Shown here: positions 3,501 through 59,752 of the stretch, piece after piece
How positions within the stretch are numbered: position 1 is the first letter of the stretch
Layout of the letters: each line of letters begins with the position of its first letter
NCBI RefSeq assembly: GCF_901765095.1
Contig: NW_021963017.1
Span: 110,253-174,252, forward strand
Direction: 5' to 3'
Source of the DNA: Microcaecilia unicolor
Taxonomy: Eukaryota
DNA: 64,000 bases
Program-made: the position numbers and the translations under genes
The notes under the pieces: model-generated
The model's database searches: none
What the model was told of the DNA's origin: nothing
Seen by the model: only the letters and a program-made list of their open reading frames with translations

Positions 3501-3835
3501 CATAGACTGCTACTAAATGGACTTGGAAAAATCCACAATTTCGGGAATAACATGTATAGAATGTTTGTACGTTTGGGAAGCTGCCAGGTGCCCTTGACCT
3601 GGATTGGCCGCTGTCGGGGACAGGATGCTGGGCTTGATGGGCCTTTGGTCTTTTCCCAGTGTGGCATTACTTATGTACTTATTCACTTGTTCAGAACCCT
3701 TATTTTATCATCCTCACTTTAATATTACCTTATCTCTTGTCTGTCCTAATTAGATTTTAAGCTCTGTCGAGCTTCATGTTCAAGTGTACAGCGCTGCGTA
3801 CGTCTAGTAGCGCTTTAGAAATGATAAGTAGTAGA
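540..3835 (+). mobile_element. CR1/L2-clade LINE ORF2 + 3'UTR, degraded. APE endonuclease ~675-1500 (YANARSLRNK..ITETW), RT ~1700-3100 (FADD box at ~2715), CR1-type C-terminus 3121-3516 (KLWNLLPENVVKAVSLAEFKKGLDGFLKD), and a 3'UTR ending in a GTAGTAGAAG-like tail.
   Basis: A series of collinear ORFs (883-1863, 1698-2330, 2358-2552, 2553-2798, 2710-3099, 3121-3516) is separated only by stops or frameshifts. The 3'UTR block recurs at 43380-43560 and the tail motif at 13760-13810. Confidence 0.8.
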
Positions 3836-5450
3836 AGTAATAGTCTTCTTTCCAGCGGAGGAGAAGGGTCAGAGGGAATCCCAAAGGACTCATCGGAAGA
3901 GAAGTACCTGGGATCTACCTCTGATTCCCATGAGCGCTCCTGCTCAGTGTCAGACACAACCTGTGTCAAGGTACTCTGACACTGGACCTGCCTCAATGCC
4001 GAGGAACGATGTCCTCTATGGCGAAGTAGAGAAGTCTATGCCCAATCTGACTGCAGCGAAGCTCCCTCCACCGACGTTGAAAGGGAGTCGACCTGGGTGG
4101 CAGGCGGCACCAGAGTCGGAGACCTCACCACAGGAGCTGGGCCAGATACCACTACAGCAGATGGCACCAGAGGCACAAGCACCCCCAATACCGAAGCTGA
4201 TTGTCGCAGTAAGCCTTCCAAAAGTTCTGGAAACAAGGCCCAGATACGACTGTCAAGAGCCGCCATCGGAGAATGCTGCGGAGCCGGTGGAACAGGCGGT
4301 GTCAGAATCTGTGGGGGCTCAGGAGTAGGTACCGGGCTGCCAAGAGACCGACTCACTGGCACCTCCTGTACCGAGAGGGAGCGGTCCTCTTGGCACCGAC
4401 GCTTCTCGGGTGCCGACTCAACGCCCCACAGCTCCCGGTACTGTAAGTCGAAGAAGAATGATGACGATGCTTCTTAGCCTTCGCTCGACAACCATCATCA
4501 AGACTCCTCAATACTGAAGAGGAGGATGTGGAATCCTCATGTCTCCTCGGGGCCGGGGGGCCTGCATAACAGGAGGCCTTCGAGACAGGTGGAGGCCTCG
4601 AGACAGGTGGAGACCCACTCAACGCCTCACTACTCCCAGCGCGAGTGGGTCTCCCAGCAGCCATCACCTCTCTCCTTGACGTCGATGCTCCTATCAATGC
4701 CGACGCTGCCGACCTCGGTACCAATGTCGATGTGGAAGGACCGGACTGAGCCCCAAAAGGTTTTTCTCGTTGGGCTTCTCGAGACACTTGGGTCCGTTTC
4801 TTCATACGAAGACACAGACTACAAGCAGCTGGGCTATGGTCCAGCCCAAGGCACTGGATACACCAGGCATGGGTATCTGTACCTGAGATGGTCTGGTTGA
4901 ACAGAGTACAACGTTTGAAGCCGCTGGGTGTCTTCGATGACATGGAAGAAAAAACGGCTTCGACGAAATCAAACAACGCGATTGTGCCAAAAAGAAAAAG
5001 CACAAAAAAAGGAGAAAAACCCAACTGCGCGGCTCAAAGGCCGGCCACATCGAAAAAGAAAGGAAACTTTAACAGGGAAAAAAAAAGTAAAAGAAGTACG
5101 GGAAAACTACCAGAAACTAGATTTTTTTTACATATATATTTAAAAGAAAAGAAAAAGACAAAAGAAATAAAGAATTAAAGAGGTGAGAATCTCACAGTAG
5201 TAGTTCTTCCTGGGCCTGAGAGAGGAGCGTCATGAAAACGAAATGCAGCTCACTGTGGATAGTAAAGAACGGAAGAGGCACACTCGTGTGGTGGGTGGAA
5301 AGTTGTTCGCGCATGTGTGGTTCGCGTTGCTCACGTGACAGAACTCTCTGGAAAGACTATTATTTTGCTTGCAAAATTTTTTCCCCGATTCTTGGGCCGC
5401 CGCTGACGTCGACCCACTTGTGAGAACAAGCAGCCTGCTTGTCCTCTGAG
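3757..5450 (-). mobile_element. DIRS-like family A 5' fragment: terminal motif ccacTTGTGAGAACAAGCAGCCTGCTTGTCCTC at 5415-5450 and a gag-like ORF (4353-5024, C-X2-C...H...C-X2-C-like motif). Segment 3900-4350 is an inverted duplicate of the same gag region.
   Basis: 4450-5450 is collinear with 47100-47790. 3900-3995 equals the reverse complement of 47000-47095. The shared peptide AQCQTQPVSRYSDTGPAS is on + here and on - in the other copy. Confidence 0.55.
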
Positions 5451-5934
5451 AAAAAGGTTTTATATACAGAAAATCTTTTGTAAAATATCCCCCCTCCCAT
5501 ATGCAATAAAACTGATTTCCTCATTAGATCAGTGATGTACAGCTTTAGTAGCTATATTAGTCCAGGAGAAAATGAAATTTTTCTGGGCTGAGATACATTA
5601 TTTTTAGGGTCTTTTAAAAAGTTCTTAAAATCTATAAAACATTCCATGAAAAGAATGGGGTAAGTTTAATATCTAACAACTTTTAAGAAAATTGATTTTA
5701 TGATTTCAAGAAATTGCACAAATTTGAGGTGTACTTGAAGGTTTGGGTTAGTATACCGCACCATAAATGCTCACATAAAAGTCCTGTATAAGAATATTTG
5801 TGTAAAGATGCTTGTCAATTGTTTTTACTGCAATTAAACAAGGAAAAGAAAAATGGGGATGAGGATCTTGTTGCAGCTGCTGAACCCCCATTATGATTGG
5901 GGGTGGGGGAGATGTATTACATCAAAGCCAAATT

Positions 5935-6135
5935 ATTTAAACCAGTAGTTCCCAAAACTGGGCCTGGAGGCACCCCAGTCAGGTTATCAGGATATCCACA
6001 ATGAATATTCATGAAAGAGATTTGATGCAGTTGCATGCACTGCCTCCACTGCTTGCAAATCTTCTCATGAATGTTCATTGTGGATATCCTGAAAGCCTGA
6101 CTGGCTGGGGTGCCTTTAGGAACAGGTTTTGGAAC
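5935..6135. repeat. Palindromic ~200-bp MITE (termini CAGTGTTTCCCAAGTCCAG...; core GGATATCCACAATGAATATTCATGA).
   Basis: Internally self-complementary. Related copies at 8500-8645, 8820-9010, 10715-10915 and 11195-11350. Confidence 0.6.
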
Positions 6136-6949
6136 CACTGATCTAAACAAAAAAAAAGGTAGAAAATAATGTTTTTGCACACGATTTTAATATATGAATG
6201 TGCAGCACATCTGATGTCTTCGTATTTTGCACTGTATAGGACGACATGCAATTATGCTTCTATTTCTACAGTGTGGCACTGTATGCAGAGCTTGGCTTCT
6301 TGAGGTTCCCAGCTCAGTTTTTGTTTGCACGTTTCTATTTCTAATTAAGGTCCTTTACTTTGTATTTGGCAAGCATCTGTCTGAGGTTATATGCAACTGA
6401 GGTAAAGAATTCTGCTACCACTGTTTGTTTTGTGTAAGGAGTTATAGCAGTTTAGTTTGCCCTGTTTTCTTAAGAAGCGCTTTGGTGTTCTAGGGACCAG
6501 TGTAATATGCGCTATGCTGCCTTTTCATGGGCTCTCTAATCTACTGCAGGGGTGGAGCAAATGTGTGGGTGGGTGGGTGGTGGGTGAGGGGAAGTCCTTG
6601 CGGATCATTCTTCCCTCAAAGGCAGTCCTACACTTTGCATATGAATACTGGCATTTTTTTTGTTCTTTACAACTCAAGTTGGAAAAAATTATGAAAATGG
6701 GGTTCAAGAATATTCATTCTTCTGTGGGCAATATAAATCTCAGAAAATGGAATGGGACGAAACACCGCAATGGGAAAAAGAATAAAAGACATATCAATTT
6801 GAAAAATGGGCCAGATCAGACCAGGGGTTCAAGGGAAAGAAACCCCTCAGAAACTGGCCCAATGCATTTCTATGGGAGAAGCAGTTCCATTTTCTGCCGT
6901 TAGAAACTTACATACAGTGAATCATAGAAGTTAGGGAATTCCTCCTTTT

Positions 6950-8499: not shown

Positions 8500-8645
8500 C
8501 CACAATCCAGGAGAGTGTTTCCCAAGTCCAGGCCTGCCTCTATCATATCCAAATCTCTTTCATGAATATTCATTGTGGATATCCTGAAAACCTGACTGGC
8601 AAGCAGTACTCCAGGACCGGACTTGGGAAACGCTGATCTAGGAAA
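8500..8645. repeat. MITE copy (partial), same family as 5935-6135.
   Basis: Shares ...catgaatattcattgtggatatcctgaaaacctgactggcaag...gacttgggaaac. Confidence 0.55.
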
Positions 8646-8819
8646 AAAATACTCCAAAAAACAATGTATTTCTCTTTCAGCAATTAAAATAATCAAAACT
8701 AAAAATGCTAAAGCTTACACAGAAACAGAGAAGACAGCAGATAAAAGATTTCATGACCTATCCAGTCTGCCCATCCATACTATTTGCTATCCCTTCCTCT
8801 CCCTTAGAGATCCTATATC

Positions 8820-9010
8820 ATTGATTCCCAAACCAGTCCTAGGAGAACCCCAGCCAGTCAGGTTTTCTGGACAGCCACAATGAATATACATAAGAGAAAC
8901 CTGTATGCAGTGGAAGCACTGCATGCAAATTTCGCTCATGAATATTCATTGCAAATATCTTGAGAACCTGACTGGCTAGGATTCCATCAGGGCATGTTTG
9001 GGAGCCACTA
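8820..9010. repeat. MITE copy, same family.
   Basis: cagccagtcaggttttctggacagccacaatgaatatacat...catgaatattcattgcaaatatcttgagaacctgactggc. Confidence 0.55.
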
Positions 9011-10714: not shown

Positions 10715-10915
10715 CCTATACCAGTGTTTCCCAAGTCCAGTTCTGGAGTACCCCTTGCCAATCAGGTTTTCAGGATATCCACAATAAATATGCATGAAAG
10801 ATTTGTATATAATGGAGGCCGTGTATGCAAATCAAGTTCATGCATATTCATTGTGGATATCCTGAAAACCTGACTGGCAAGGGGTACTCTAGGACTGGAC
10901 TTGGGAAAACACTGG
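10715..10915. repeat. MITE copy, the most intact, with both terminal inverted repeats (CAGTGTTTCCCAAGTCCAG / CTGGACTTGGGAAAACACTG).
   Basis: Perfect-looking palindrome around the cattgtggatatcctgaaaacctgactggcaagggg core. Confidence 0.65.
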
Positions 10916-11194
10916 CCTATACAGAACTGTGTCAAAGGCTTTGATATAATCTAAGTACACCACGTCAAGCATACTCTCTCTGATTAAAATCATAACTTAC
11001 TGCACAAAAGGATTTTAAAATGACAAAACAAAATGAGATTTTAGAAACAGACATCCTAGCAAAATAAGAATTCTTTTCATGGTCTACTAAATGAAGATCA
11101 CTAAGCTAAAAACCACATTCTGTCTCAGCCATGTGGCAGATAACCAAGTGTAAGTTTAGAAGAAATGAGTGTTTCAATCAACTAGTACCTAGGT

Positions 11195-11350: not shown

Positions 11351-11530
11351 GGAGCAAAGATCAAGTATCTAGTATTTCACTTATAAGATACTGTGGGTAG
11401 ATAAAATGTGATAAAAATCCAGTCTACAATACCTTGCTGTTTACAGAAGCTATTCTGCATTTAAGGTGAATCACAATCATGACAACAAATATCACAAAAT
11501 AAAACTATTTATATGATATTTATGTTTTAC

Positions 11531-13130
11531 CTTTTGTTTCTTCTTGTCCTGGTCTGAATCTAGTATCTTGTACCATATGCGAGTCACATTTCTGTTTAGG
11601 CTTTAGTGCAGGAAACAGTTTCATCATTAGATCAGATGTAAGAGGACTACTTGTAATGCTATCCATCCTTTCTTGAGGTTGTTCATCTTTCTTTATCGAA
11701 GCAACCTTCCTTTTTATTACTTTATCTGGGATAGATGTTCCATTTTGTGCTTTGTCTTTACTAGTGTAGATCTCTGTTACAAGAAGCTGCTCATTCTCTT
11801 CAAGGTCAGCCCAGGTTCTGTCATCATCAAATCCAGCATCATTTCCATTTAAAATGGATGTGCTGGAGTTAAGTATAGCAGCTTTTTTTTCACTTTTGTT
11901 TTCTGACATGCTGAAATCCTCATTATTGTAATCTTCTTGGTCTGATAAGTCAAGATCCTGGTCCCTGCTTTTACACTCTTTACTAATATTTTTGGAAGGT
12001 ACTTGACAATCATAGTTGTTTGGGTTATCTTCCCTATTGGTAAAAAGTAACTCCTCTGTGTTGTATTTTTCATTTATTACAGTGGTATCAAGGTCATCTT
12101 CAGAGTTAGAAGTTAACACACTATTTCTCTCATTTGCTTTTGTATCCAACTTACCACTTTTTAATGATGGGTTGTCCGTGCAAGATGCTTGAAATAACTT
12201 ATCACTTGAATTATGACATTGTTCATTCAGTGTACTACTAGATGTCTTAAAATCAGGGTTTGATCTTGTTATATCATTGTCAGCTTTGTTTGCTTGTGTG
12301 GCATGCTCTCCCTGTTTAGTTTTGCTATCGGTAGCTACAGAATTCAATAGACTTGCATGATGATGCTGCTGTCCTAATTTAACAGGAGTAGAAGACATTC
12401 GTCGACCTTTATTAATTTGCTGATCTTGAGCCAATAGTTTAAATACAAATGAGGAATTACTAGAGAAGGATACGTCTTCCGCAGCCTGTTCGAAGAGCAG
12501 AAATTCATCTAATTCCAGGCTCTCTTTTTCCTTTTCTTTTTCCCATGTTTCAGATCTCTTCTGGAATGAAAGCTCAAAAGAATATTCTGGGTTTTTTGAA
12601 GGCACATTTGTAGAATACATGGATGTCAACACTGTAGGTGTCAGAAGCTTTTCAACTCCATCCAAATTTTTTCTTAGCCTGCTGTCAACATCAAATACCT
12701 GCCTTGCATGTTCCATATCATCTTTGTTCGTTTCTAGCTTGCTGCTTATTTCTGATCGAAGAGAATTTCTTAATTGTCCATCAAGTTTATTCTCCGACAG
12801 CTCATGTATTGTGAGTGGAGAGGGATTCTTTGTATTTATGTTTTTAAGCACCATTATCTTCTGAGTAGATATAGCAGGACTGTTTTTTGGTTTAACTATC
12901 TGATTAAAAATTGTAACTACATTTTCAGAAAGCTGTTCCTTGCTTACAGGTGTACTTTTCCTCTGTAACTGCGGTCTCTCCATTTTTGCTGCATTTTTGT
13001 CCTCAGTTCTTTGTTGAGTCACCGCTTTGCTTTTTGATAATTTAGATTTAGCATCAGTAAACCTAGCTAGGCCAGCTCCACGTTTCAAAAAAGGTCTCTT
13101 CACCACAGGTTTAACTATTGGTTCCAGGCT
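11531..13130 (-). CDS. CENPJ: CENPJ large central exon, 1600 nt (phase 0 in, phase 1 out). Begins SLEPIVKPVVKRPFLKRGAGLARF (PN2-3/tubulin-binding region motif). Contains the ETWEKEKEKESLELDEFLLFEQAAEDVSFSSNSSFVFKLL and DDDRTWADLEENEQ blocks and ends ...RPGQEETK(G).
   Basis: 528-codon open frame (track ORF 11520-13106, which starts at a GTG). Acceptor gattttag|AGCCTGG at 13130 and donor ACAAAAG|gtaaaaca after 11531. Several blocks are near-identical to human CENPJ exon 7. Confidence 0.85.
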
Positions 13131-21249: not shown

Positions 21250-24200
21250 AAACTTACAACAATATATATGTGATGGATAAGAAAGTTTTTGCTGAGCAGT
21301 TTTGTTATTCAGTCTGTGTGTCTGGCTACAGTATGACAACCTGCTCCAGAGAGAACAATTATTTTGTATTGGCTTAGTGAGATACCAATAAAGATTTTTT
21401 TCTGGTTGCGCCTATATCTAAGTCTGATTGTCTCTCTTATTCCAGCCTCTAAGGCTGAAGTGTTTTCACCAGGGGCAATGGACAGGATTACACAAGGGTG
21501 ATTCGCCTACGGAAGACTGAACAGTCTGCCCCAACCATGGTCCAAGGGCTCAGCAAAACCTGTATGTGACACCAAAACTGCAAATAGCACCCAAGAATAC
21601 AGAAGCAAAGATAATGTTTGTGATGGGCTATGATGGGAATATGCAGATAGGCCTTAGCAAGATCCTAGGAGGTCTAGAACTTTCCCACACCCCTGAGGGA
21701 GCAAAAACATAACAACCCGTATGTACCTCGTGTAGCCACCTGAGAAGCGCTGCAACGTTGTATAGCCTAAGATCAGACAGATTGACTCCCCCCTCGCTAC
21801 CTGACGGGTGAGCTTGCTATACCCAATCCTAGCCCTGCGACCTCCCCAAATAAAGGACGATATCACTCCCCTATAGGCCCCCTCATCTTTACTATGAATC
21901 CACAGTGGCATCATTTGCAGAGCATAAAGGATCTTAGGGAACAACACCATTTTAACGAGTGCCACACGTCCTAAAAACGAAACAGGGAGATCCTTCCATT
22001 GTCGACATAGCTGTTTAATGGCCTCTAACTTGTCGCAGACATTTTTCTTGTATATATAGGTAAAGTCTAAATGCAGGTATACTCCCAGGTATTTCATAGG
22101 TCCCATTGTCAAGGCCAGAGGGAAGTCGGAGCAGCTCTTGCAGACACAATTAGCGGACAGCAACATTGCCTCAGACTTATCAAAATTAAACCTCAAACTG
22201 GAGAAAAATCCAAATTGTTGGATAAGATTTATCAAAATGGGTATCCCCCTTGTCGCCTGCCCCAGGAATATTAACATATCATCTGCAAAAAGATTGATTT
22301 TGTATTCACACTTCTCTACTCTTATTCCTGCCAAAGGCTCCAAGGCCAAAACAAAAACCATAGGCGACAGAGGGCACCCCTGTCTCGTACCCCTTTGCAG
22401 CGCAAACGACAGGGACAAAGCATTATTTATCAAAATTTGTGCTGTGGGAATCCTGTATAAAGCCAGGATCCCGTGCAGAAACTCCCCATATATGCCAAAC
22501 TGTGGCAAAACCCAAAAAAGATGGTCCCATAAAATTTTATCGAATGCTTTTTCTGCATCTAGGCTAACAATGATATCTCCCGGCTTACCCCCCCTTTGCT
22601 TGAATTGCACTCAACGCTCTTAGAATGTTAGTAGAGGCATACCTCCCTGGGATGAAGCCCAATTGGTCCTCATGCACTAGAATGGGAAGCACCTTTCCCA
22701 ACCGGGCAGCCATAATGCTAGCGAACAGTTTTATGTCCTGATTTAATAAGGAGATGGGCTGGTAGAAACACAGCAGCACCCGATCGCGGCCTGGTTTAGG
22801 CAGAACTATTATAGATGCATGTGTCATGGCACCCGTGGACTGCCCTTCTGTGCACAATGCTTCGCATACTTCGCTAAATGGCCCTGCTATCTGACCTCCC
22901 AGAATCTTGTAAAATTCAGGCCCCGGAGCTTTTGCTAGCATAAGCTTCTTTATAGCTTCTTATATTTCAAGCCCCTGAACAGACACATTCAAGATATCTC
23001 GGTGTTCTTGCGTCAGCGAGGGGAGCCTAAGGCCCTGAAAGAATGCCTCCCGTTTGTTCAAGTCACAACTCCCCGTCATACAGAGATTTATAAAAATCCA
23101 CAAACGCCTTTTGTAACTCCTCTTCCCTAGACAGTGTCTGCCCCGTTACAGATTTGATACAATTTATTAGTTGCTTAGCAGGTCTGTTTCGAACCAGGGT
23201 GGCCAGCAATCTATCCGTCTTATTCCCCCATCTGTGGAGTCGGTATTTGTATAACTGAATGTCCCTCATCGCCCGTTTATTCAAAGTGTCATTAATCTTA
23301 GTTTTTAACTCTCTGAAGGTGTTCCTAGCCGCTTCATCTCCCCACGCTGCCAATGTCCTAGCATCTTGGAGTAGGCGGAACTGGGTAAGAAGTTCCCCAT
23401 CTCCTTTTTTTCGAGTTCTGGCCATGTATTCTATAATTTGTCCTCTCATCACTGCCTTCCCTGCTTCCCACAAGGCGATCGGGTCAGATACAGATGACTT
23501 GTTATCTGTTAGGTAGTGTCCCCATTCCTTTTGGAGAAATTCCTTGAATTCTGGCTCTTGGTACAAGGTAGGATTCATGCGCCAACCCAATCTACTCCTA
23601 ACCCTCGAGAGGCTTATATCCACCCAAATCAGGCTATGATCAGAGACCACTCTCGCCTCAATCTCCGCAGAACGACTAACAGAGAAGAGAGTTTGTGATA
23701 GTAAAATATAATCTAACCTAGCCTGACATTTATGTACATGTGAGTAGAAAGTGTATTCTCTGTCATCCGGGTGTAGCACCCTCCAAACGTCCACTAGCCC
23801 CAGATCTCTTTGGAGAAGCCCTATTCCCCCTGTCCTCCATTCCCTTAGGCTGTGCTTTCGATGGATTATAGTCAACTAGTGGATCTGCCGTTATATTAAA
23901 ATCCCCTCCCACAACCAGTTGATATTCTGGCAGTGGTGCCAGAGCAGCCAACAGCTGAGAGTAGAATTTCTGGGAGTAGACGTTCGGAGCATATACCGAA
24001 CACAAAGCTACCCAGTCCCTGAATACTACCCGCCCAAATCACAAATCTTCCCTCAGGGTCCTGAACAATTTTGTGGCAGGTACTATCTAACCCTTTACTC
24101 ACGAGGATAGCTACTCCCCTTTGTCTACTGTTGTACGAAGAGTAGGCAATCTCACCCACCCAACCCTGTTTCAACTTAAGATGTTCTGGTGAAGACAAAT

Positions 24201-26350
24201 GGGTCTCCTGAAGCATAAGAACATCCACTCTTAATTGCCTACTATAATGCAAAAATTTTTTACGTTTAATTGGAGAATGAATGCCACCTACATTAAAGTA
24301 AGCTAACCATAAACTACCCATTCCCCCACACCAGGGCCATACTAATATAATACCGTAAGGACACAAAGACCCTCCAGGGCGACATCCCAGCAGTGCCGCT
24401 CCACAAGGAAAGCCATTCATGTTTCACCTGCAAGCATAGCAACCGCACTACAGCAACAAGTCTCTCATTCTTCAGCCTCAGCCCCCTATTCTTCCCCTGG
24501 AACCCCAACTTCGACCTCCCTTCCCCCCTTCCCAACTCCCCAACCTCCCTCCCCTCCCCATACCCCCATCTCACTCACTCTCAATACATCAATTTTATAC
24601 CAGACATCCCTCCCCAACAGCCTCACATGCATATCCACATCCGCACCCCCACTCATCCCGGCACAGATCCCTATGAAGCGAAACAAAATCCACACACCCG
24701 TTTCCAAACTCCCCCTCCATCCCACCCCACCTTTCGCCCTGATTGAGGCCCTATCTCCCTCAATCATGCCCAAAAAAGAAGAGCACCTAACCCCCTCCCC
24801 TGCCTCCTCCCACTGTAACCAAGGCAAATAAACAGCATGAAGTAACAAACAATCTAACAATCCACCCCCCCCCCCCCAAGGGGTGCTAACCCCTACCCAA
24901 CAATCAATGAATTAACTGCAATCAGTGACAGTACTTATTATGTCTGGATCCAACTGTCATCTCTCTGACAAAAATAGGTTCATTCGCCTCGTGTCGGCAC
25001 GTTGCTGCCGTTCATTTGTGGCACAACATTTCCGGTCAGAAACCTTCTCTGCCGTTTCAAGGGGGGAGGGGAGGACACGCACCCTCCACAACCGACCAGT
25101 GTCCTGTCAATCCCATCCCCTTAGACCCCCATGTCGGGTCCAGGAACCATTCTATACTGGAGGTGAAGTATGCGCACCCCCTCATCTCGTGTGAATATCA
25201 ATGTGCTATGCAGTATATATTTTATTCTTTGCGAGATCCGCTTACTGACCAATTCTTAAACTAATCATCCAAGCTGGAAAAACATCACTTTGCTTCTTCC
25301 ACTCTATAATCATATTTTTTAGCTTGCAACAGTCTATTAGTTGGCTAATCAAATTAAGATAACACTCCATGTCCTCCTTAACCAGGCAATCCCCGCACCT
25401 CCTCGGCCCTTTCTGGTACATTCAGTAACTTCTTCAGAAAGGCTTGTAGATCCTCTGCCTTTGTTAGAGTGAAAGTATGGTTGTTATGGGTAATCCGTAC
25501 CCTTGCTGGGTATTGGAATGCAAATTTAATTCCTTTCTCAAACAGCTTAGTACAGTACGGTGCCAACACCTTCCTCTGCTCCATGACTGACAGAAAAATC
25601 CTGGAACAGCAATATCCGATTTCCCTTAAATTCCACATTGCGCTGTTTCTTATATTGCTCACGAATTTTTGCTTTTATAGCATAATTCAGGTACCTTGCA
25701 ATGATCAGCCTTGGCCTCCCGTTGGCTTTCCTTCGCAGCCCGATGCGATGGACCCGCTCCACCTGACCCATGCCCATCTCCGGCTCTAGGCCCAGTTGTC
25801 TGGGAAGCCAGCTTTCTGTCAGCTTTCAACTCCACATCAGGGACAGACTCAGGAACACCCACAATCCTGATGTTATTCCATCGGCCCCTGTTTTACTGAT
25901 CCTCCACTCGGTCTACCAACGTACGGATTTGCGTCTCCAGTTCTCTTATACGCCCTTCTGCTGCTACCATATGATCTTCCTGAGCAGAGATACGCTCTTC
26001 TGCATGCTGTATTCTGGCCACGTGGCTGGTGATACATTCCCCGATTTCATCCATGCCTGCGAGTAACTTGGCAAGCTTATCATCCAATAACTGCGACATA
26101 TGCTTTAGGGATACTTGCACCATGTCCTCGTGCGCCGGAGCTAGGTTTTGGCTCCGCAACGGTGGGGTTGGAGGTGCTGGCAACACCGGTGACGCAATCT
26201 TGCTTTTCACCGCGCTGCCTTTCTCCTTTTCAGAGCTTTCACTGGCATTCCGCTCCTACACACCCGTTAATAACACACCATTTGTTTTTGCACACATTCG
26301 GTTGGCTCACAGGGCTACTTAACATGATATCAAGGTGCCGTAATCGTCAT
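21250..26350 (-). mobile_element. L1-clade LINE, near full length. ORF1 26210-25378 (coiled coil ...RIRELETQIRTLVDRVEDQ; CTD ...RLIIARYLNYAIKAKIREQ...KGNRILLFQDFS; ...IKFAFQYPARVRITHNNHTFT), C-rich spacer 25370-24420, ORF2 endonuclease 24420-23063 (SPIKRKKFL..LMLQETHL; ...SDHSLIWVDISL), RT 22941-21654 (LDAEKAFDKI; FADD), then 3' region.
   Basis: Track ORFs 25893-26210, 25547-25777, 25378-25662, 23896-24420, 23063-23875, 22585-22941 and 21654-22610, all on the minus strand and collinear. Confidence 0.75.
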
Positions 26351-32302: not shown

Positions 32303-34140
32303 CTATAGAGAATCCGAGGCCTTTTCTTCTCTAAAAATGAGAGGTGGTAGCCGTGTTAGTCCACTCTTAAGGTTATCAACAGAAATCAAACAAAATAAAA
32401 CATGGAAAAGAAAATAAGATGATACCTTTTTTATTAGACATAACTTAATACAGTTCTTGATTAGCTTTCGAAGGTTGCCCTTCTTCGTCAGATCAGAAAT
32501 AAGCAAATGTGGTAGCAGATAGTACATATAAGTGAAACATCCAAGCATTACTTTGACAGTCTGGGAGGGTGGGGGTGGGTAGGAGGTATGCATGGGGACA
32601 TCAAAGCATTTCATTGATATTTTAACAGGATGGGCGTGGGTAGGTGAGAGGAGGGTGATAAACAGAGAAATACAATTATATGGTTTATAATGGGCTAGAA
32701 AACCCAGATCTTTGTTAAGTCCTGTCTGTTGGGTGTCAAAATATTCAATCATTCTGACTTCAAAAGTCTTACGTTCCTGTATTGTTTTAAAGTTACCTTT
32801 CAGGATTCTAACTATTAAATCACTGGTGCAGTGTCCTGGTCTTGTAAAATGCTGGCCCACCGGGGTGGGAACCTGACTGGCACCGGCTATCTTCATGTGA
32901 TGTTTGTGCAGACTGAATCTTGTCTTATGCATCTGGCCTGTTTCTCCAATATAGCATCCTTCATTACATTTTTTACACTGAATGATATATACCACATTGG
33001 AAGATGAGCATGTGAAAGATTCCTTTATGTTGAATATTTTTTCTTTGTGAATGACAGTGGGGTCCTGTGAAATGTTTTGGCATAGCTTGCAGCTGGATGT
33101 ATTACAGGGAAATGTGCCCTTCTTTTCCTTTTCAGTCTGTGTTGGGAGTTTACTTCTGATTAGCTTGTGTTTTAAGTTGGGTGGCTGTCGGAAGGCAAGC
33201 ACTGGTGGGGATGGGAATATCTCTTTCAGTAATTCATCTTCCTGGAGTAGAGGCTGTAGGTCTCTTATGATTTTCCTCAGTTTCTCCAGCTCTGGGTTGT
33301 ATGTCACTTCAAGGGGGATTTTGTCTGTGGCTTTTTTTTTTCTTTGTACTGTAGCAGACTTTCCCTGGGTGTTTTGAGGGAGGAGGCAATATTCTTGGAG
33401 ATTACTTTTGGGGTTGTAGCCTGTTTGAAGGATGCAGTCAGGGTTTCAAGGTGTCTGTCTCTATCCCCTGGGTCCGAGCAGATACGGTGGTATCTTGTGG
33501 CTTGGCTGTAAATAATGGCTCTTTTTGTATGTGAAGGATGGAAGCTGGAGTTGTGGAGGTAGCTGCATCTGTCTGTGGGTTTCTTGTATATAGATGTTTG
33601 TATACATCCATCACTGATTGAGACTGTGGTGTCCAAAAAATTGACTTTTTCTGGGAAGTAGTCAATTTTGAATCTGATTGTTGGATGGTATGTATTGAAG
33701 GAATAGTAAAATTGTTTCAGAGTTTCTTCCCCTTCCGTCCAAATCATAAAAATGTCATCGATGTACCAGTAGTGTTTTAGAGGTTTGGTCTGGCATGTAT
33801 TCAGAAATGTCTCTTCCAGCTCAGCCATAAAAAGGTTGGCATATTGGGGTGCTGTCCTGGTGCCCATCATTTGTAGATAGATATCATTCTTAAAGCGGAA
33901 GTAGTTGTGAGTTAAAATGAATTTGATTAATTTTGTAATAGTTTCTGGTGAGTATTGATGGTCCAGTGTGGATGTTTTTAGGAGTCTCCCACATGCAGCT
34001 ATGCCATCCGCATGTGGAATGTTGCTGTATAGTGATTCTACATCCATATTGATAACCTTCTCTAAAAAGAAATTCCCATAAGCGTTATATTTATTTGTTA
34101 CATTTGTATCCCACATTTTCCCACCTATTTGCAGGCTCAA
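32303..34140 (-). mobile_element. Penelope-like element, 5'-truncated. RT (33304-34140: MGTRTAPQYANLFM motif B, YIDDIF motif C) followed by a C-terminal GIY-YIG endonuclease (32303-33307: C-x-C zinc module, then NVVYIIQCKKCNEGCYIGETGQMHKTRFSLHKHH).
   Basis: Two long open frames of 278 and 334 aa (one frameshift apart) with PLE-specific RT and GIY-YIG signatures. Confidence 0.75.
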
Positions 34141-39100: not shown

Positions 39101-40678
39101 ATCAAATGCATTTATTGGAATACCCGACGTGGCCATGTTTCGCCCTCAGGCTGCGTCAGGGGTACAAACTATGAAAACAAAACAAGTATAAAAACATATA
39201 TAGCCATACATAATAACAATGTCACAAACCAGAATGTTACTGGGGAAATTAGTAACATTCTGGTTTGTGTATTGCAGGGGAATGTCCTTGAGACAGCCCA
39301 TGTTTGGGCGAAACGTGCATGTCGGGCAGATGATCCCCTGAGTCCGACAAACTAAACAAACTTGAAAAGATAAGTTAATTTGAGATATTTCGCTAACTAT
39401 AAGAGGAGGCTATATATTTAAAAAGAACCGGTGAAGATATTGATGTTGTATATATCGCTAAAGCCTGAAATTGGTAGTGATTAACATCACTGAGGTTCTG
39501 GGGAAATATCTATGATATGATCTGAAGATTAAAAGCTTTGAATGTTCTGACTTATATGCTTTAGGAGACACATATCCAGAGATGGGATCAGCATCTTTTA
39601 CAATCCAGATTGTACACTGAATGCTATATGCATTTTGATCCCTCTGGGGAGAAAAAAAAAGGAGGGGGGGTAGTTAGCACTTTATGTTCGTAGGCATACC
39701 TTTTGTCCATGACAGTATTTACAAAGATCCTCTTGGGTGGTGCTTAGCAATTAAAAGCTGGCTTACTGGGCAGTGCTATACTTTCATAAATATATATACC
39801 CCGAATATTGGCTGGGGGAATTTTCCTATGATATACATGAAGCTCTCTCTAAATTCACTCAAGGTATGTTGCTACTGGGGGGTGATTTTAACCTGCCATA
39901 TGGGATGACACTAGATCAAGCTGAGGCTAGCTCAGCTTCTCGAAATTAATTTGATGAAATCATTGGATCTTTTGGATATTTGGCACTTACAGCATCCGAA
40001 ACAACAATGTACTCTTTTTACTCCTACACACAAGGTATATGTACTTGCATAGAAGTGTGCAGTAGGCAATTATGGGGACAGACTGTTGATTCACATATAA
40101 AAAGCATCCAAATTTCTGATTGTGCCCCGGTTTGGATATCTATGGGGGCCTTGGCTGAAGAGATGCGCCAAACCTTTTGGAGACTTAATACCTACTGAGG
40201 GACCCAGTGGCTTGTGCGGATATTAGAGCTGTCATGAAATGCTACCTGGACAGTAATGATAATGACACAGTTTTGGATGGAACTTTATGGGATGCTTTGA
40301 AAGCGGTGGTGAGAGGGCACTTGGTTAAGTGGGGTGCACGTAAGGAAAAAAAAGCTCAGGAGCAAATGGAGCTTAGGCTTCAAGCTCAACTAGTACATTT
40401 AGAGACAACATCCGAGATGCTCCACGGTTGAGCTTCTGAATCACTTACAGCAATGTAGAGCTGAACTGCATACCTTACAGGAAGAGAAAGTAGAGTTCAG
40501 ATGCATTTGCTTAAACAGAAGTTTCTTTGAATTTGGTAATAAGTCTGGTAGTATGTTGGCGAGAAATTTGCAGGACAAGGTGAGAGGGGCCACGATCTTG
40601 AAGATTAAAGGGCTGGATGGATCCCTACGCTACATGGATGGGGAGATTCATGAACATTTTATTCAATACTATAAGAAA

Positions 40679-42320
40679 CTAGCTCTACCCGGCCACGCGT
40701 TGCTGTGGCTCAGTCTGGTTAAATAGAAAAGAAAGAAAAGAGGAAGTGCACGTTTCTAATATGTTTAATTTCACAATGCTTGTGGGTATACAATATTTTT
40801 TGTTGTTCCATTGTGTGTGCAGAGATAAGAGATTGTCTGGTTTGCCGACTGTAGAACATGCAACATATAATTGTCCATATGAGAAGCAATCCGTGTGTAG
40901 ATGTAAACAGGTGAATTCTAAAGATTGGCCCTGAGCTTTGTTGATGGTGATTGCAAATGCCAATCGAATTGGGAATTGCAATCTCTTAAATTGAAATGGC
41001 ATATCTGCTGGAATCATAGGAATGCGAGGAATGAGGACATCTTCACCTTTGAAAGGTCCTGTCAAGACTGTTGCTTGTACGACATTGGTCATAAATTTTT
41101 TTACTGCAAGCCGCGTGCAGTTGCAAAGCTTTGGCTGGTTGATATTTCGCAACATGATAATTGGCACGCTGATTTTCAATTGCAGTACGTGCGGTGGCAT
41201 CCCTGGCAGATCGAGTGAATTGAAAAATTCTGTTGGATAATTAACCGCTTCATCTGCTTCCAGGACAGTGTCGACGGACTTGTATGTGAGTGGCTCGCTT
41301 TGAATGTTAGACTGAATAATATTGTTCAGTTCGTAGACGTCTTTGTTCTTGGCCGCAAGAATAGCTCGTTCACTCAGCGAATCGTGATTGTTATAATTGG
41401 TTAGAATATTGGGAAATACTCTCTCAACCAATTGTTCTTTTGACATCACTAAATTGGAGAAGTTATGAGGCAATGAAATTCGTCCTGAGGTCAGATCAAC
41501 CGGCACGTTTCCATTACCAATTTTCAGCAATTGATGTGACAATATCTGAGCTGATTGATCATTTTGCAATTGGACACGCATATTTGTAGTTAAGTTTAAC
41601 GTCTTTACGTGTTGCCACAAAGTAGAGCATTTTAGGCAAGCATTTATTTCGTCAGCTGGTGTGGATCGAGGAACTACAGGTAATGTTTGCCTGAAATGTC
41701 CTGCAAGCAATATTAATGTGTTCCCAAATGGTCTGATGTTTCCACACAAATCTTGCAATGATTGATCAAGAGCCTCGAGGGATTTTTTTTCGCTGTGCTG
41801 TTTCCTCAGCACATATTTGAGTTATTCTTTGTCTGTTTCGCTCGTTCGCTGATGCCCGTTCTTCCTCAGTTTGATTTGCAATTGTAGGTATATAAAAACA
41901 CGCGCGTATTCGAATGCAACTTTGTGTTGAAATTTCAAAGCAATCGGTGAAGACCTTTCAGAAATTTAAGCCACTGTCAGCCTGTCGCGTTGATTCTGTT
42001 GAGAACAAAGCAGATCTGAAGCTGCAGAACGCGATCGCCATGCTCGCAACCGTGCACCAAGTCTGGCTGCACGTCGCTGTGCTGTTTCCTCGGCACATAT
42101 TTGAGCCATTGTTTGTGTGTTTCGCTCGTTCGCTGATGGCCGTTGTTCCTCAGTTTGATTTGCAATTACTCGTCGCACTACTTCCACTCCGCGAGTACGA
42201 CAGCTGTGACATAAAAACATGCGCGTATTCGAATGCAACGTTGTGTCCAAATTTGAAAGCAATCGGTGAAGAACTTTCGGAGATTTAAGATTTTGAACAA
42301 ACGAACATTTACATTTTTAT
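40679..42320 (-). mobile_element. Helitron-like fragment. ORF 41812-40685 is the C-terminal half of a PIF1-family helicase (LILLAGHFRQTLPVV; FAITINKAQGQSLE...GQLYVACSTVG). The 3' terminus has a short GC hairpin (GCCACagcaacgcGTGGC), 9 nt, then CTAG (40682-40679) abutting host T. The host target is A|T (aagaaA|Ttatatag). The 5' end is non-canonical or truncated.
   Basis: 375-aa open frame with helicase motifs IV-VI of Helitron Rep/Hel proteins. Terminus and target dinucleotide fit Helitron rules. The split L1 codons flank it. Confidence 0.55.
41795..42290. repeat. Two direct copies of a ~180-215-bp unit (41795-41970 and 42075-42290) separated by ~100 bp, at the 5' side of the Helitron-like fragment. 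The helicase ORF's first codons (MLRKQHSEKK) lie in the first unit.
   Basis: cgctgtgctgtttcctc(a/g)gcacatatttgag...gtttgatttgcaatt...gcgcgtattcgaatgcaac...gcaatcggtgaaga...tttaag appears in both copies. Confidence 0.6.
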
Positions 42321-43319
42321 TTATATAGATTATGTAGTTAGGATCTCAATTTAAATGTTTCTGAAATTCAGGATTATCTTTCTCAGGTAATTCTCCTATG
42401 CCTCTCGGAGGTTGATCAGGCTTTTCTTGAGGCTCCCTTTCCCATCAAGAGATCTTGAAAGTGATAAAGGGGTTGGGTGGGGGCAAAACTCCGGGTTTGG
42501 ATGGTTTTAGTGTTAATTCTATGAAATGTTTGGTATGGAGGTGAGCCCCCTCCTTCTCCGGATAGGCAATTCTAGTTGGGAGGGAGGGCGCTTGGCGAAG
42601 AGCATGTGAGAGGCTGGCATTTCTGTACTTTTGAAACCGGGCAGAGATTCAGCGGTTTGTGGTTCATATAGACCGATCTCCCTTATAAATGTAGATATCA
42701 AAATTTTGGCAAAGGTGATGGCAGATAGGATGGGTCAGGTGCTTCCTACATTTATTCACCAGGATCAGTCCTGATTCCAGCCCAGAGACAAGTGACTGAT
42801 AATATCTGTAGGACGCTGAAATTACTAAGGTTGGTTAGGGACTGTGCAGAACCAGTGACCTTTCTAGCTACTGATGCAGAAAAGGCCTTTGACAGGTTCG
42901 CTTGGCCCGTTCTTTGGCAAGTTATGTTGGTTATGGCATTTGGGCCGCAACTAATTGGATGGTTACAACAATTATATGCAGGACCAATGGCTTGGATCCG
43001 TACTAACGGTGGGTACACCAACACCATTTCAATAGAACGGGATACTCAACAGGGTTGTCCCCTTTCTCCATTGCTGCACTTGCTCAATGGGTTTGGTCTT
43101 TGGGAGATATACGGGGAATTGAAGTGGGAGATGACATGCATAAGATTGCTTTGTTTGTGGATGACTTCTTATTTTATATTACCTCTCCAGGGTTGACATT
43201 GTCTCCCCACAGGATGAATCTAGATTGCGGCAGGATTTTCCTTTTTACTGGGCAAAACGTAAACTTTTGTTGTTTGGGTATTCTAAAGACTGGTGCCAGG
43301 TTTTTTTCTTTAAATTATC

Positions 43320-43560
43320 TTAGCGGAGTTTAAAAAAGGTTTGTACGGCTTCCTAAATGAAAAGTCCATAGACCGATATTAAATGGACTTGGGGGAAAAT
43401 CCACTATTTCTGGGATAAGCAGCATAAAATGGTTTGTACATTTTTGGGATCTTGCCGGGTATTTGTGACCTGGATTGGCCACTGTTGGAAACAGGATGCT
43501 GGGCTCAATGGACCTTTGGTCTTTCCCAGTATGGCAATACTTATGTACTTATGGCGACAG
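43320..43560 (+). mobile_element. CR1 3'-end fragment (AEFKKGLYGFLNEKSIDRY* + conserved 3'UTR) nested in the L1.
   Basis: 43380-43560 is near-identical to 3520-3700. Confidence 0.5.
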
Positions 43561-45368: not shown

Positions 45369-45866
45369 CTAAGCTCTCAACATCCAGGCCGAGAGAGCCA
45401 GGGACTGGAGGCTGGGATGTAGAAGCGACCCCTCATTCTGAGTGATGAGGGTTGGAAAACATTCCAATCTCCACAGTTCTTCAAAAGACAACTCCAGAAG
45501 AAGAGGGAACCAAATCTGATGCAGCCAGAAAGGAGCTATCAGAATCATGGTTCCATAATCTTGTTTGAGTTTCAGCAAACTCTTCCCTATTAGAGGTATG
45601 GGAGGATATGCATACAGAAGGCCTGATCCCCAATGCAGGAGAAAGGCATCCAACGCTAGTCTGTCGTGGGCCTGAAGCCTGGAACAGAACTGAGGGACCT
45701 TGTGATTGATCTGATTGGTAAAAAGATCCACAGAGGGGGTGCCACACGCTCGGAAGATCTTGCGGACAACGTCCATGTTAAGTGACCACTCGTGAGGTTG
45801 CATTACCCTGCTCAGTCTGTCGGCCAGACTGTTTACGCCTGCCAGATAAGTGGCTTGGAGAAACAT
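45369..45866 (-). CDS. DIRS-A RNase H C-terminus + conserved DIRS/Ngaro downstream domain (YLAGVNSLADRLSR...VDLFTNQINHKVPQFCS...LIAPFWLHQIWFPLLLEL).
   Basis: N..AD.LSR RNase H end and the VDLFA..N..LP.F.S...APPW..Q.WFP block. Confidence 0.5.
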   Translation of the reverse strand: MFLQATYLAGVNSLADRLSRVMQPHEWSLNMDVVRKIFRACGTPSVDLFTNQINHKVPQFCSRLQAHDRLALDAFLLHWGSGLLYAYPPIPLIGKSLLKLKQDYGTMILIAPFWLHQIWFPLLLELSFEELWRLECFPTLITQNEGSLLHPSLQSLALSAWMLRA

Positions 45867-46707
45867 GCAGTGATGGCGTGCCCAAAGCTACATCTGGACG
45901 GCTTCCTGACAAAGAGGGCAAGATCCGGTGCCCCCTTGCTTGTCGGTATAATACATGGCAACCTGATTGACTGTCTGAATCAATATGACTTGGTTGGACA
46001 GCCGGTCTCTGAAAGCATTTAGAGCATTCCAGATCACTTGCACTTCCAGGAGATTGGATCTGAAGACCTTTCTCCTGAAAGGACCAAGCTCCTTGAGTGT
46101 GAAGCCCATCTACATGAGCTCCCCACCCCAGGAGGGATGCATCCGTCGTCAGCACTTTTTGTGGCTGAGGAATTTGGAATGGACGTCCCAAGGTCAAATT
46201 GGGCCAAATCGTCCACCACTGCAAGGAATTCCGAAAGTCGGTGGACAGTTGGATCACATCCTCTAGACTTCCCGCAGCTTGATACCACTGGGAAGCTAGG
46301 GTCCAATGAGCTGATCTCATGTGTAGGCGTGCCATGGGAGTCACATAAACTGTCGAGGCCATGTGCCCCAGAAGTCTCAACATCTGCCGAGCTGTGATCT
46401 GTTGAGACGCTCGAACGAAGGACACTAGGGACAGGAGGTTGTATGCCCTCGCCTCGGGGAGATAAGCTCGAGCTGTCTTTGTGTTCAACAGTGCTCCAAT
46501 GAATTCCAATTTTTGAACTGATTTGAGATGGGACTTTGAATAATTGATTACGAACCCCAGTAGTTCTAGCACCTGAATAGTTATTCGCATGGACTGTAGA
46601 GCGCCTGCCGAGGTGCTCTTCACCAGCCAATCATCGAGATAAGGGAACACATGCTTTCCCAGTCTGTGCAGCGACGCAGCGACTACCACCAAGCACTTCG
46701 TGAACAC
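45778..46707 (-). CDS. DIRS-A RT / RNase H ORF (309 aa: ...FPYLDDWLVKS..., INYSKSHL, ...LEFIGALLN..., ...TTDASLLGWGAHV...).
   Basis: YxDD box, the KS.L...FLG-type motif and the TDAS..GWGA RNase H start. Confidence 0.55.
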   Translation of the reverse strand: MFTKCLVVVAASLHRLGKHVFPYLDDWLVKSTSAGALQSMRITIQVLELLGFVINYSKSHLKSVQKLEFIGALLNTKTARAYLPEARAYNLLSLVSFVRASQQITARQMLRLLGHMASTVYVTPMARLHMRSAHWTLASQWYQAAGSLEDVIQLSTDFRNSLQWWTIWPNLTLGRPFQIPQPQKVLTTDASLLGWGAHVDGLHTQGAWSFQEKGLQIQSPGSASDLECSKCFQRPAVQPSHIDSDSQSGCHVLYRQARGHRILPSLSGSRPDVALGTPSLHVSPSHLSGRRKQSGRQTEQGNATSRVVT

Positions 46708-59251: not shown

Positions 59252-59752
59252 CTGCTCTAGTTTTTGCAAAAGAGGATCATTATGAATTTCTTCTCCGGGA
59301 CTTCCTAAATCACCAGTCCTAATGTCTTCCCATTCAATTGGGGCATCTTTAAATATCATGGGTCCCTTCTTAGCCCAATGTGATGCTCTCAATGGGTTTA
59401 CTGTTTCCACTGTGTCACTTTCTTCATAAAAACAGTTAGCCTCTGAAATTTCTTCTTCATGAAGAGAGTCTTCATTTATAGAATTGCCACTGCCTGAGAT
59501 AAGAACGGATTTTATCTGGGAATTAACTGAGATGTTTCCACTTCTACACAGTGGGCTCTCGCTAATTGTTTCCAGAGCAGAAAAGGAAGGATTAAGTATA
59601 ACTCCAGCTCGCGAAGCGCTGGACATCCACTGTGTTATAAAGTTCTGTTCAATATTCAGATCTGAAGTGGTAGGCATTTTGAAAAATTTGGCTCCAGTCA
59701 GTTCTACCACATAAACGGCATGATTTGCAGCATTCCAATTGGCTTTACATGT
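59252..59752 (-). CDS. CENPJ: CENPJ first coding exon. Acceptor ...gatcagtag|ACATGT; 5'UTR 59752-59678 containing short uORFs; start ATG 59677-59675 (ttcaaaATGc); donor CTAGAGCAG|gtaaga after 59252. Encodes [32 protein letters not shown]...DPLLQKLEQ.
   Basis: Open frame from ATG to a canonical GTAAGA donor. N-terminus aligns with human [35 protein letters not shown] and the end with DPLFKKLEQ. The track ORF 59180-59710 begins at a GTG, not ATG. Confidence 0.75.

Follow-up and report, generated by a model that had tools for sequence, protein, structure and literature searches.

Background

The described systems closest to the element reported here are Helraiser/Helibat1, a canonical Helitron of vespertilionid bats (PDB 7lcc; PMC4778049, PMC5876387), and four horizontally transferred animal Helitron families—Heligloria, Helisimi, Heliminu, and Helianu—with HeligloriaB fragments recorded in bat, lizard, lamprey, salamander, and snake (Thomas, Schaack & Pritham 2010, PMC2997563). 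Here, we describe a Helitron copy in a 64,000-nucleotide stretch of Microcaecilia unicolor DNA (contig NW_021963017.1; the whole stretch is called the window, and positions are counted from its first letter). With a probability of roughly 0.9, we take the sequence at 40679-42329 on the minus strand to be a non-autonomous copy of a canonical (Helraiser-type) animal Helitron, complete at both ends but deleted in its interior, lying in an L1-like long interspersed nuclear element (LINE) within an intron of the gene CENPJ.

With Helraiser, this copy shares 5'-TC and CTAG-3' ends, a GC-rich palindrome some 11-13 nt before the 3' end, a target between A and T that is not duplicated on insertion, and a parent of about 5.2-5.3 kb. 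Homology to the Helraiser transposase, RepHel, covers residues 1150-1461 in the open reading frame (ORF) of the window copy, and residues 67-282 and 548-848 in a relative from a termite. The two nevertheless belong to separate families, their amino acid homology being divergent though clear, as against 74-80% identity within the family of the window copy; the latter, in addition, is missing Rep as well as helicase motifs I-II and is tandemly duplicated in part of its interior. The four horizontally transferred families, likened here by their description and with HeligloriaB as the obvious candidate for the present family, show the same patchy spread over bats, other vertebrates, insects, and other invertebrates, nucleotide identities of 80-98%, and mostly fragmented or non-autonomous copies, whereas four hosts of the present family—a termite, an emballonurid bat, a spider, and a crayfish—fall outside the hosts listed for them (PMC2997563). 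A literature search on the terminal sequences turned up no relevant paper. As a kind of element, the window copy is an ordinary, already known type of repeat.

Termini and insertion site

A protein search with the 375-amino-acid ORF at 40685-41812 (minus strand) returned about 1,700 homologues, the closest of which, at 74-80% amino acid identity, come from the bats Saccopteryx leptura and Cnephaeus nilssonii, the termite Cryptotermes secundus, the spider Trichonephila clavipes, the crayfish Procambarus clarkii, and unnamed assemblies. Surrounding DNA was compared for five copies (Saccopteryx, L001; Cryptotermes, L002; Cnephaeus, L003; Trichonephila; and Procambarus) and for three metagenome contigs (L007-L009), with the Cryptotermes copy (L002 4474-9694, 5,221 bp) as the reference. 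The element, its ends, and the interrupted LINE are laid out as follows; here and below, a slash marks the point of insertion.

40679..42329, minus strand: whole Helitron copy, 1,651 bp, from 5'-TC (42329-42328) to CTAG-3' (40682-40679)
42211..42329, minus strand: left terminal sequence, reference 1-121, starting TCTATATAAATAAAAATGTAAATG after a host A (complement of the plus-strand t at 42330); 92.6% identical to the reference
40692..40709, minus strand: subterminal 3' palindrome GCCACaGC-aac-GCGTGGC, a 7-bp stem with one bulge, 13 nt from the 3' end
40679..40682, minus strand: 3' terminal CTAG, followed by a host T (complement of the plus-strand a at 40678)
39684..40678, plus strand: left part of the L1-like LINE, endonuclease/linker, ending ...HEHFIQYYKK; collinear by tblastx with a copy at 21654-24420
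42330..43333, plus strand: right part of the L1-like LINE, LCS*DLNLN... followed by reverse transcriptase (RVT_1 at 42792-43196); likewise collinear by tblastx

Read on its own strand, the element starts A/TCTATATAAATAAAAATG, that is, with a canonical TC directly after a host A, its first letters at 42329 being TCTATATAAATA. The same junction occurs in the Saccopteryx, Cnephaeus, and Cryptotermes copies, which sit in unrelated flanks; TC is kept in L002 and L003 and has mutated to TA in L001. Over the first 30 nt, the window copy matches L002 at 30/30 positions, L003 at 29/30, and L001 at 27/30. At the other end, the element strand reads GCCACAGCAACGCGTGGC-CGGGTAGAG-CTAG/T (40709-40679), and the window contains GCCACAGCAACGCGTGGCCGGGTAGAGCTAG only once, at those minus-strand positions. 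The ending GCCACAGCAACGCGTGGCCGGGTAsAGCTAG/T is common to the Saccopteryx, Cnephaeus, Cryptotermes, Trichonephila, and Procambarus copies and the three metagenome contigs. Homology to every other copy stops at CTAG, after which comes T or, following the mutated CTAA of L001, AT; CTAG itself (40682-40679, a CTRR end) is common to seven of the eight other copies. The last 30 nt match L003 at 29/30 positions, L002 at 28/30, L004 and L005 at 27/30, and L001 at about 25/30.

Thirteen nucleotides from this end lies the conserved GC-rich palindrome GCCACaGCaacGCGTGGC, which is identical or near-identical in L003, L004, L005, and L007-L009 and has a damaged stem in L001 and L002. The hairpin followed by CTRR that the preliminary description had read here thus recurs, with CTAG/T, in other copies. 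The flanks on the element strand are ...CATAA/ and /TTTCTT, so that the insertion falls between A and T with no target-site duplication. On the host strand the site is ctataagaaA/Ttatgtagt, its uninterrupted form being tataagaaattatgtag, and excision of 40679-42329 restores the frame of the L1-like ORF as YYKK/LCS. Two findings weigh against this reading: the hairpin does not stand out thermodynamically (-5.8 kcal/mol; z=-0.57 relative to shuffles), and we found no empty paralogous site at the DNA level in the window. We take the hairpin as real because of its position and its conservation across copies, not because of its folding energy.

The left boundary requires a correction. The element had first been drawn only to 42320, where no TC is found, and was accordingly described as a fragment with a truncated or composite 5' region, preceded by two direct repeats of about 200 bp. 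Such a fragment, lacking a canonical 5' end and lying behind unrelated repeats, would account for the missing TC at 42320, for an L1-like frame that is also open as YYKK/LYR-LCS, and for the repeats, which do exist. Homology to three independent copies (two bats and the termite), however, extends 9 bp beyond 42320, up to 42329, where the sequence starts with TC after A, and the repeats consist of the family's own reference segments 41-128 and 710-803. The 9 bp concerned, ttatataga (LYR), had been counted as host sequence, but the element begins with them; since they make up exactly three codons, both boundaries stay in frame, and 42320 seemed plausible because the L1-like frame is open either way. 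We therefore consider a truncated or composite fragment very unlikely. The host site had been given as aagaaA/Ttatat and the split codons as YYKK/LY; insertion between A and T was right, and the sequence and codons to its right are those stated above. Boundaries in other copies thus depart from the first account at the 5' end and agree with it at the 3' end.

A Helentron/Helitron2-type element, with terminal inverted repeats and insertion between T and T, might be suggested by the right flank, which starts TTT. No terminal inverted repeats link the element ends, though, nearly all copies examined have A before their 5'-TC and T after their CTAG-3', and the closest protein is that of Helraiser, a canonical Helitron, so that this alternative has next to no probability.

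Helicase remnant and internal structure

In a Pfam profile search, the 375-amino-acid ORF matched PIF1 (1.2e-20) and Pif1_2B (6.5e-15) and gave no match to Helitron_like_N; of the two domains for which a profile search had been proposed, the ORF thus contains the helicase and lacks the other. Among all PDB sequences, its best match is Helraiser (7lcc, residues 1150-1461, E=4.2e-55), with the ORF motifs GHFRQTLPVV, FAITINKAQGQSLE, and GQLYVACS corresponding to GDFRQCLSIV, FAMTINKSQGQTLD, and GQLYVAFS of Helraiser; the GDF motif has changed to GHF in the window ORF. The Walker A lysine of Helraiser is K1068 (PMC4778049), and the match begins downstream of it, the Walker A region being missing.

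These data also bear on whether the ORF might be a pseudogene or exon of a cellular PIF1-family helicase, as could be supposed from its Pfam profile, which reports only PIF1 and Pif1_2B, and from the label "ATP-dependent DNA helicase PIF1-like" that many database homologues carry in their sources. The best cellular PIF1 match in the PDB set reaches only 5e-9, 46 orders of magnitude behind Helraiser; non-coding terminal sequences flanking the ORF are kept across phyla; the same element in termite and spider bears a Rep domain; and nucleotide identities of 89-93% between a vertebrate and a termite would be impossible for a vertically inherited gene. The ORF thus has neither the full core with Walker A, nor PIF1 as its closest relative, nor the vertical inheritance expected of a cellular gene, and we give this explanation practically no weight. 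The attribution of the ORF and its motifs to a Helitron helicase in the preliminary description is upheld by the Helraiser alignment and by the Rep domain in the 5.2-kb termite copy of the same DNA family; the ORF does not group with cellular PIF1, the outcome that would have spoken against a Helitron.

The termite reference is near full length and has three ORFs—an N-terminal one, a Rep ORF, and a complete PIF1 helicase. Its N-terminal ORF (L002:5304-6056, starting at reference 831) matches Helraiser 67-282 (E=8e-17), and its Rep ORF, with Helitron_like_N, matches Helraiser 548-848 (E=1.2e-67). Five collinear reference blocks cover almost the entire window element, the first being the left terminal sequence (reference 1-121 = window 42329-42211, minus strand, left end); the other blocks and internal features are as follows.

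41965-42201, minus strand: reference 676-915, end of the 5' leader and first RepHel codons (RVIANQTEEQR...AARL...); 87% identical to the reference
41885-41970, minus strand: reference 41-128, first part of repeat unit 2
41790-41883, minus strand: reference 710-803, second part of repeat unit 2
40679-41788, minus strand: reference 4128-5221, C-terminal part of the helicase (last ~320 codons) and right end
42074-42289, minus strand: repeat unit 1, within the reference 676-915 segment and part of the left end
41790..41970, minus strand: repeat unit 2, a partial tandem duplicate in which reference 41-128 is joined to 710-803
41788..41790, minus strand: junction of the large deletion; reference 804-4127 is missing (zinc-finger region, Rep HUH domain, helicase motifs I-II)
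40685..41812, minus strand: remnant ORF, 375 amino acids, of which residues 10-325 (40838-41785) are the C-terminal RepHel helicase part (PIF1 and Pif1_2B)

The direct repeats of about 200 bp are therefore real, but they lie inside the element rather than in front of it: they are a partial tandem duplication of the family's left end and first RepHel codons. They align as two blocks, one of 94 nt (93% identity) and one of 79 nt (90%), whose spacings are 284 and 319 bp. Both units share an internal deletion (reference ~122-675), apart from a 35-bp difference at the junction, and the duplication must therefore be later than that deletion. The truncation, composite 5' region, and fragment of the earlier account give way to an element with both canonical termini, the 5' one agreeing almost perfectly with termite and Cnephaeus.

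The window copy has no Rep because reference 804-4127 is deleted, an event of 3.3 kb that took out Rep together with the ATP-binding motifs of the helicase; the copy can therefore not move autonomously. Termite and spider copies do carry Rep (HUH, Helitron_like_N), and the family thus qualifies as a canonical Helitron whose helicase is nearer to Helitrons than to cellular PIF1, with the window copy as a non-autonomous member. Non-autonomous copies are usual for Helitrons. The ORF itself is a decayed remnant, not a gene: codon positions 1, 2, and 3 carry 19, 10, and 14 private substitutions, as in neutral decay after insertion. An exact look-up of the ORF among public assemblies gave no record. 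No Pfam match was found for a 98-amino-acid ORF in the repeats or for several adjacent ORFs, and no further pieces of the family occur elsewhere in the window.

Homology, both termini, the junction between A and T, and the loss of Rep are observed directly; the transposition history that they suggest draws on experiments with Helraiser (PMC4778049, PMC5876387). The parent was an element of ~5.2 kb encoding a Rep(HUH)-PIF1 helicase transposase, and its deletion derivative must have been mobilized in trans by the RepHel of an autonomous relative. By analogy with Helraiser, RepHel would nick the top strand between A and 5'-TC and peel it off in the 5' to 3' direction; unwinding would stop at the hairpin and CTAG, and the strand would be joined between A and T without target duplication, its complement presumably being made by the host. 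The target was the linker region of the L1-like LINE, which lies antisense in the CENPJ intron, and neutral decay of the copy followed.

Relatives in other phyla

Over a shared 1.09 kb, nucleotide identity to the window copy is 92.6% for Cnephaeus, 90.9% for Cryptotermes, 89.1% for Saccopteryx, 86.0% for Procambarus, and 76.3% for Trichonephila. Private substitutions amount to 4.3% in the window copy, 5.5% in Saccopteryx, 3.2% in the termite, and 1.7% in Cnephaeus; since most differences are private, the four closest copies radiate, star-like, from nearly one sequence, although their hosts span vertebrates and insects. Both bat copies are deletion derivatives with other breakpoints (reference 1-248 joined to 3503, and 1-255 to 3611), and the deletions thus arose independently. 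Under the rule of Yang & Bennetzen and Thomas et al. (PMC2997563), by which at least 80% identity over the last 30 bp defines a family and over the first 30 bp a subfamily, the window copy falls into one family and one subfamily with the bat and termite copies, agreement being 25-29/30 at the 3' end (five copies) and 27-30/30 at the 5' end.

From this comparison of sequences, in which the copies of two bat families and of the termite depart from the window copy by only 7-11%, we infer that the family probably entered the host vertebrate lineage by horizontal transfer. Against this stand two limits: the argument depends on the host being a non-mammalian vertebrate, and one copy from the host genome underlies the analysis. 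A search for both termini in viral contigs, as a possible transfer vector, gave zero matches. Near-identity across phyla could also reflect contaminated assemblies, and some of the closest protein matches do come from metagenome and raw-read assemblies. The copies from bats, termite, spider, and crayfish, however, lie inside contigs of 0.6 to 221 Mb, each copy has its own flanks, deletion breakpoints, and private substitutions, and the window copy interrupts a host LINE within a host gene intron; with such long contigs and individual flanks, contamination is improbable to the point that we set it aside in favor of horizontal transfer. The comparison adds a non-mammalian vertebrate, an emballonurid bat, a termite, a crayfish, and a spider as hosts of one Helitron family whose core copies are still about 90% identical in DNA—a further clean case of the known transfer of Helitrons across phyla.

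Several copies merit separate mention. The copy of Saccopteryx leptura, an emballonurid bat, occupies L001 7132-9120 (CM072138.1), with two ends that can still be recognized (5' TA in place of TC, 3' CTAA) and its own deletion breakpoint; a recent survey judged Helitron annotations outside Vespertilionidae to be false positives (PMC10162687). The Cnephaeus copy has an insertion of ~280 bp in the helicase region (L003 10193-10472) relative to the other copies. Among the metagenome contigs, L007, L008 (WNFK01190612.1), and L009 (WNFK01081615.1) are deletion derivatives, for example with reference 584-1737 joined to 5097-5221, that end in CTAG/T and presumably come from eukaryotic DNA in the samples.

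A strand-specific excess of G>C changes

The private substitutions of the window copy are themselves unusual; nothing else in the analysis would be surprising to a specialist, and the evidence for it comes from one copy. Among the 47 in the 3' 1.09 kb, 19 are G>C on the element strand and 2 are C>G (strand asymmetry, p=2e-5), whereas each of the other three close copies has 0-2 G>C changes and an ordinary, transition-rich spectrum. At all but two of the G>C sites, the spider and crayfish outgroups have a base other than C (G or A), which makes C the derived state. Leaving out the 19 G>C changes lowers the private divergence of the window copy to 2.6%. The changes lie in 40679-42329 (minus strand), especially 40815-42290, and over the whole element, from termite reference to window copy, G>C outnumbers C>G by 30 to 5, with 14 of the 30 in AGA. 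The changes concentrate at A-G-A: AGA sites changed in 8 of 20 cases, other guanines in 7 of 109 (p=3e-4). That the ORF stayed open despite such heavy mutation is due in part to the fact that a change to C never makes a stop codon.

The repeat units allow the burst to be placed in time. Of the 18 changes by which they differ, 6 are of the C/G type; five G>C changes are found in unit 1 and none is specific to unit 2, which makes the burst later than the duplication. The burst would have struck the top strand at or before insertion, mainly as AGA>ACA. It looks like the footprint of single-strand editing or damage in this one copy.

A tentative reading, which we regard as rather doubtful, is that the AGA>ACA burst records editing or damage specific to single strands during rolling-circle transposition, for instance by a TC-specific cytidine deaminase, uracil excision, and REV1 acting on an exposed bottom strand. 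The likeliest cause, though a speculative one, is that cytosines at TCT on a transiently single-stranded bottom strand were deaminated, the uracils excised, and C inserted opposite the abasic sites. Clusters of the APOBEC type show C>G and C>T at TpC on single-stranded DNA, by way of uracil excision and REV1 (COSMIC SBS2/SBS13, yeast models). The window burst resembles these in being strand-coordinated and confined to about 1.6 kb, and in its C>G changes at T-C-T, which affect one strand and as many as 40% of the motif sites. It differs in being almost purely C>G with few C>T; in favoring TCT over TCA (8/20 against 1/16 sites), unlike human A3A/A3B; and in affecting the complement of the strand as which Helitrons are thought to move.

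This last difference weighs against editing during transposition, as does the behavior of unit 2. According to the Helraiser model (PMC5876387), it is the top strand that forms the single-stranded intermediate; were this deaminated, the top strand would show C>G or C>T, and the changes observed run the other way. Because the affected strand is the complement of the transferred one, either exposure of the bottom strand (for example at the donor site) or a guanine lesion with a preference for AGA is needed, and the pattern fits bottom-strand exposure at the donor site better than editing of the travelling strand. Unit 2, moreover, escaped the G>C changes of unit 1 though it keeps several AGA sites, which makes the burst patchy.

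Causes with no link to editing of this kind are a substantial possibility, somewhat short of even odds, and each would be easier to accept given that there is one copy only. The excess might, first, be a sequencing or assembly artefact, but a consensus error would be strand-symmetric, which 19 changes against 2 are not, and C/G-type changes make up 45% of the private substitutions as against 7.6% of mismatches in all other repeat pairs of the window (p=6e-12). Second, it might stem from a germline process acting on the region, for instance an asymmetry coupled to transcription of the CENPJ intron or clusters of mutations left by break repair; for CENPJ, the top strand of the element is the non-transcribed one, on which guanine lesions would build up unrepaired. 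A regional process should mark the flanks as well, however, and it does not appear to: the plus-strand TGT:ACA ratio is 56:26 in the element and 12:24 and 17:11 in the adjoining 1-kb flanks, and in repeats 1-1.7 kb to the right only 2 of 39 and 1 of 27 mismatches are of the C/G type, no excess. A sequencing artefact and a transcription-linked regional asymmetry were both rejected as causes. Third, guanines on the top-strand intermediate might have been damaged, for example by oxidation; that the top strand is the known single-stranded intermediate (PMC5876387) favors such damage over deamination of the bottom strand, while T-C-T on the opposite strand would suit a TC-specific deaminase. We know of no guanine lesion that prefers A-G-A.

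A literature search found no report of Helitron editing of this kind. If editing during transposition did occur, the burst would be the first evidence that hosts edit Helitrons, and it would supply a sequence mark that separates donor copies or intermediates from ordinary copies. Should it recur in other copies, it would offer a direct read-out, in sequence, of the strand exposed in eukaryotic rolling-circle transposition and of host attack on the intermediate.

Genomic neighborhood

Two ORFs match exons of CENPJ (CPAP), and the LINE and the Helitron therefore lie within an intron of this gene, with the Helitron in gene orientation.

11520-13106, minus strand: large central exon of CENPJ, matching the central region of bird CENPJ
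59180-59710, minus strand: N-terminal exon of CENPJ, matching residues 3-135 of bird CENPJ

The CENPJ exon compared is 38-46% identical to birds and 35% identical to gorilla, values that point to a vertebrate neither mammalian nor avian; this host and its close relatives appear to have no entries in the protein collection. The intron between the two exons, ~46 kb and filled with repeats, suggests a large genome. A second L1-like LINE at 21654-24420 (minus strand) is better preserved, with Exo_endo_phos and RVT_1 ORFs, and is collinear with the interrupted one at the protein level only. No protein in the large collection searched is more than 40% identical to the L1-like reverse transcriptase ORF, and the LINE families of the host therefore seem to be unrepresented in that collection.

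Other repeats fill out the window. At 883-2330 (plus strand) lies a CR1-like endonuclease-reverse transcriptase (Exo_endo_phos_2). By eye, 32303-34140 (minus strand) is Penelope-like, a reverse transcriptase ORF being followed by an ORF with a GIY-YIG-like motif (VVYIIQCKKC...YIGETG), and 45369-46707 (minus strand) holds a DIRS-like pair of reverse transcriptase and RNase H with no Pfam match. Palindromic repeats of ~200 bp that resemble miniature inverted-repeat transposable elements occur at 5933-6150, 8826-9003, and 10721-10915, with related pieces at 8550-8671 and 10715-10926; they are 72-86% identical to one another and cluster around the large CENPJ exon.

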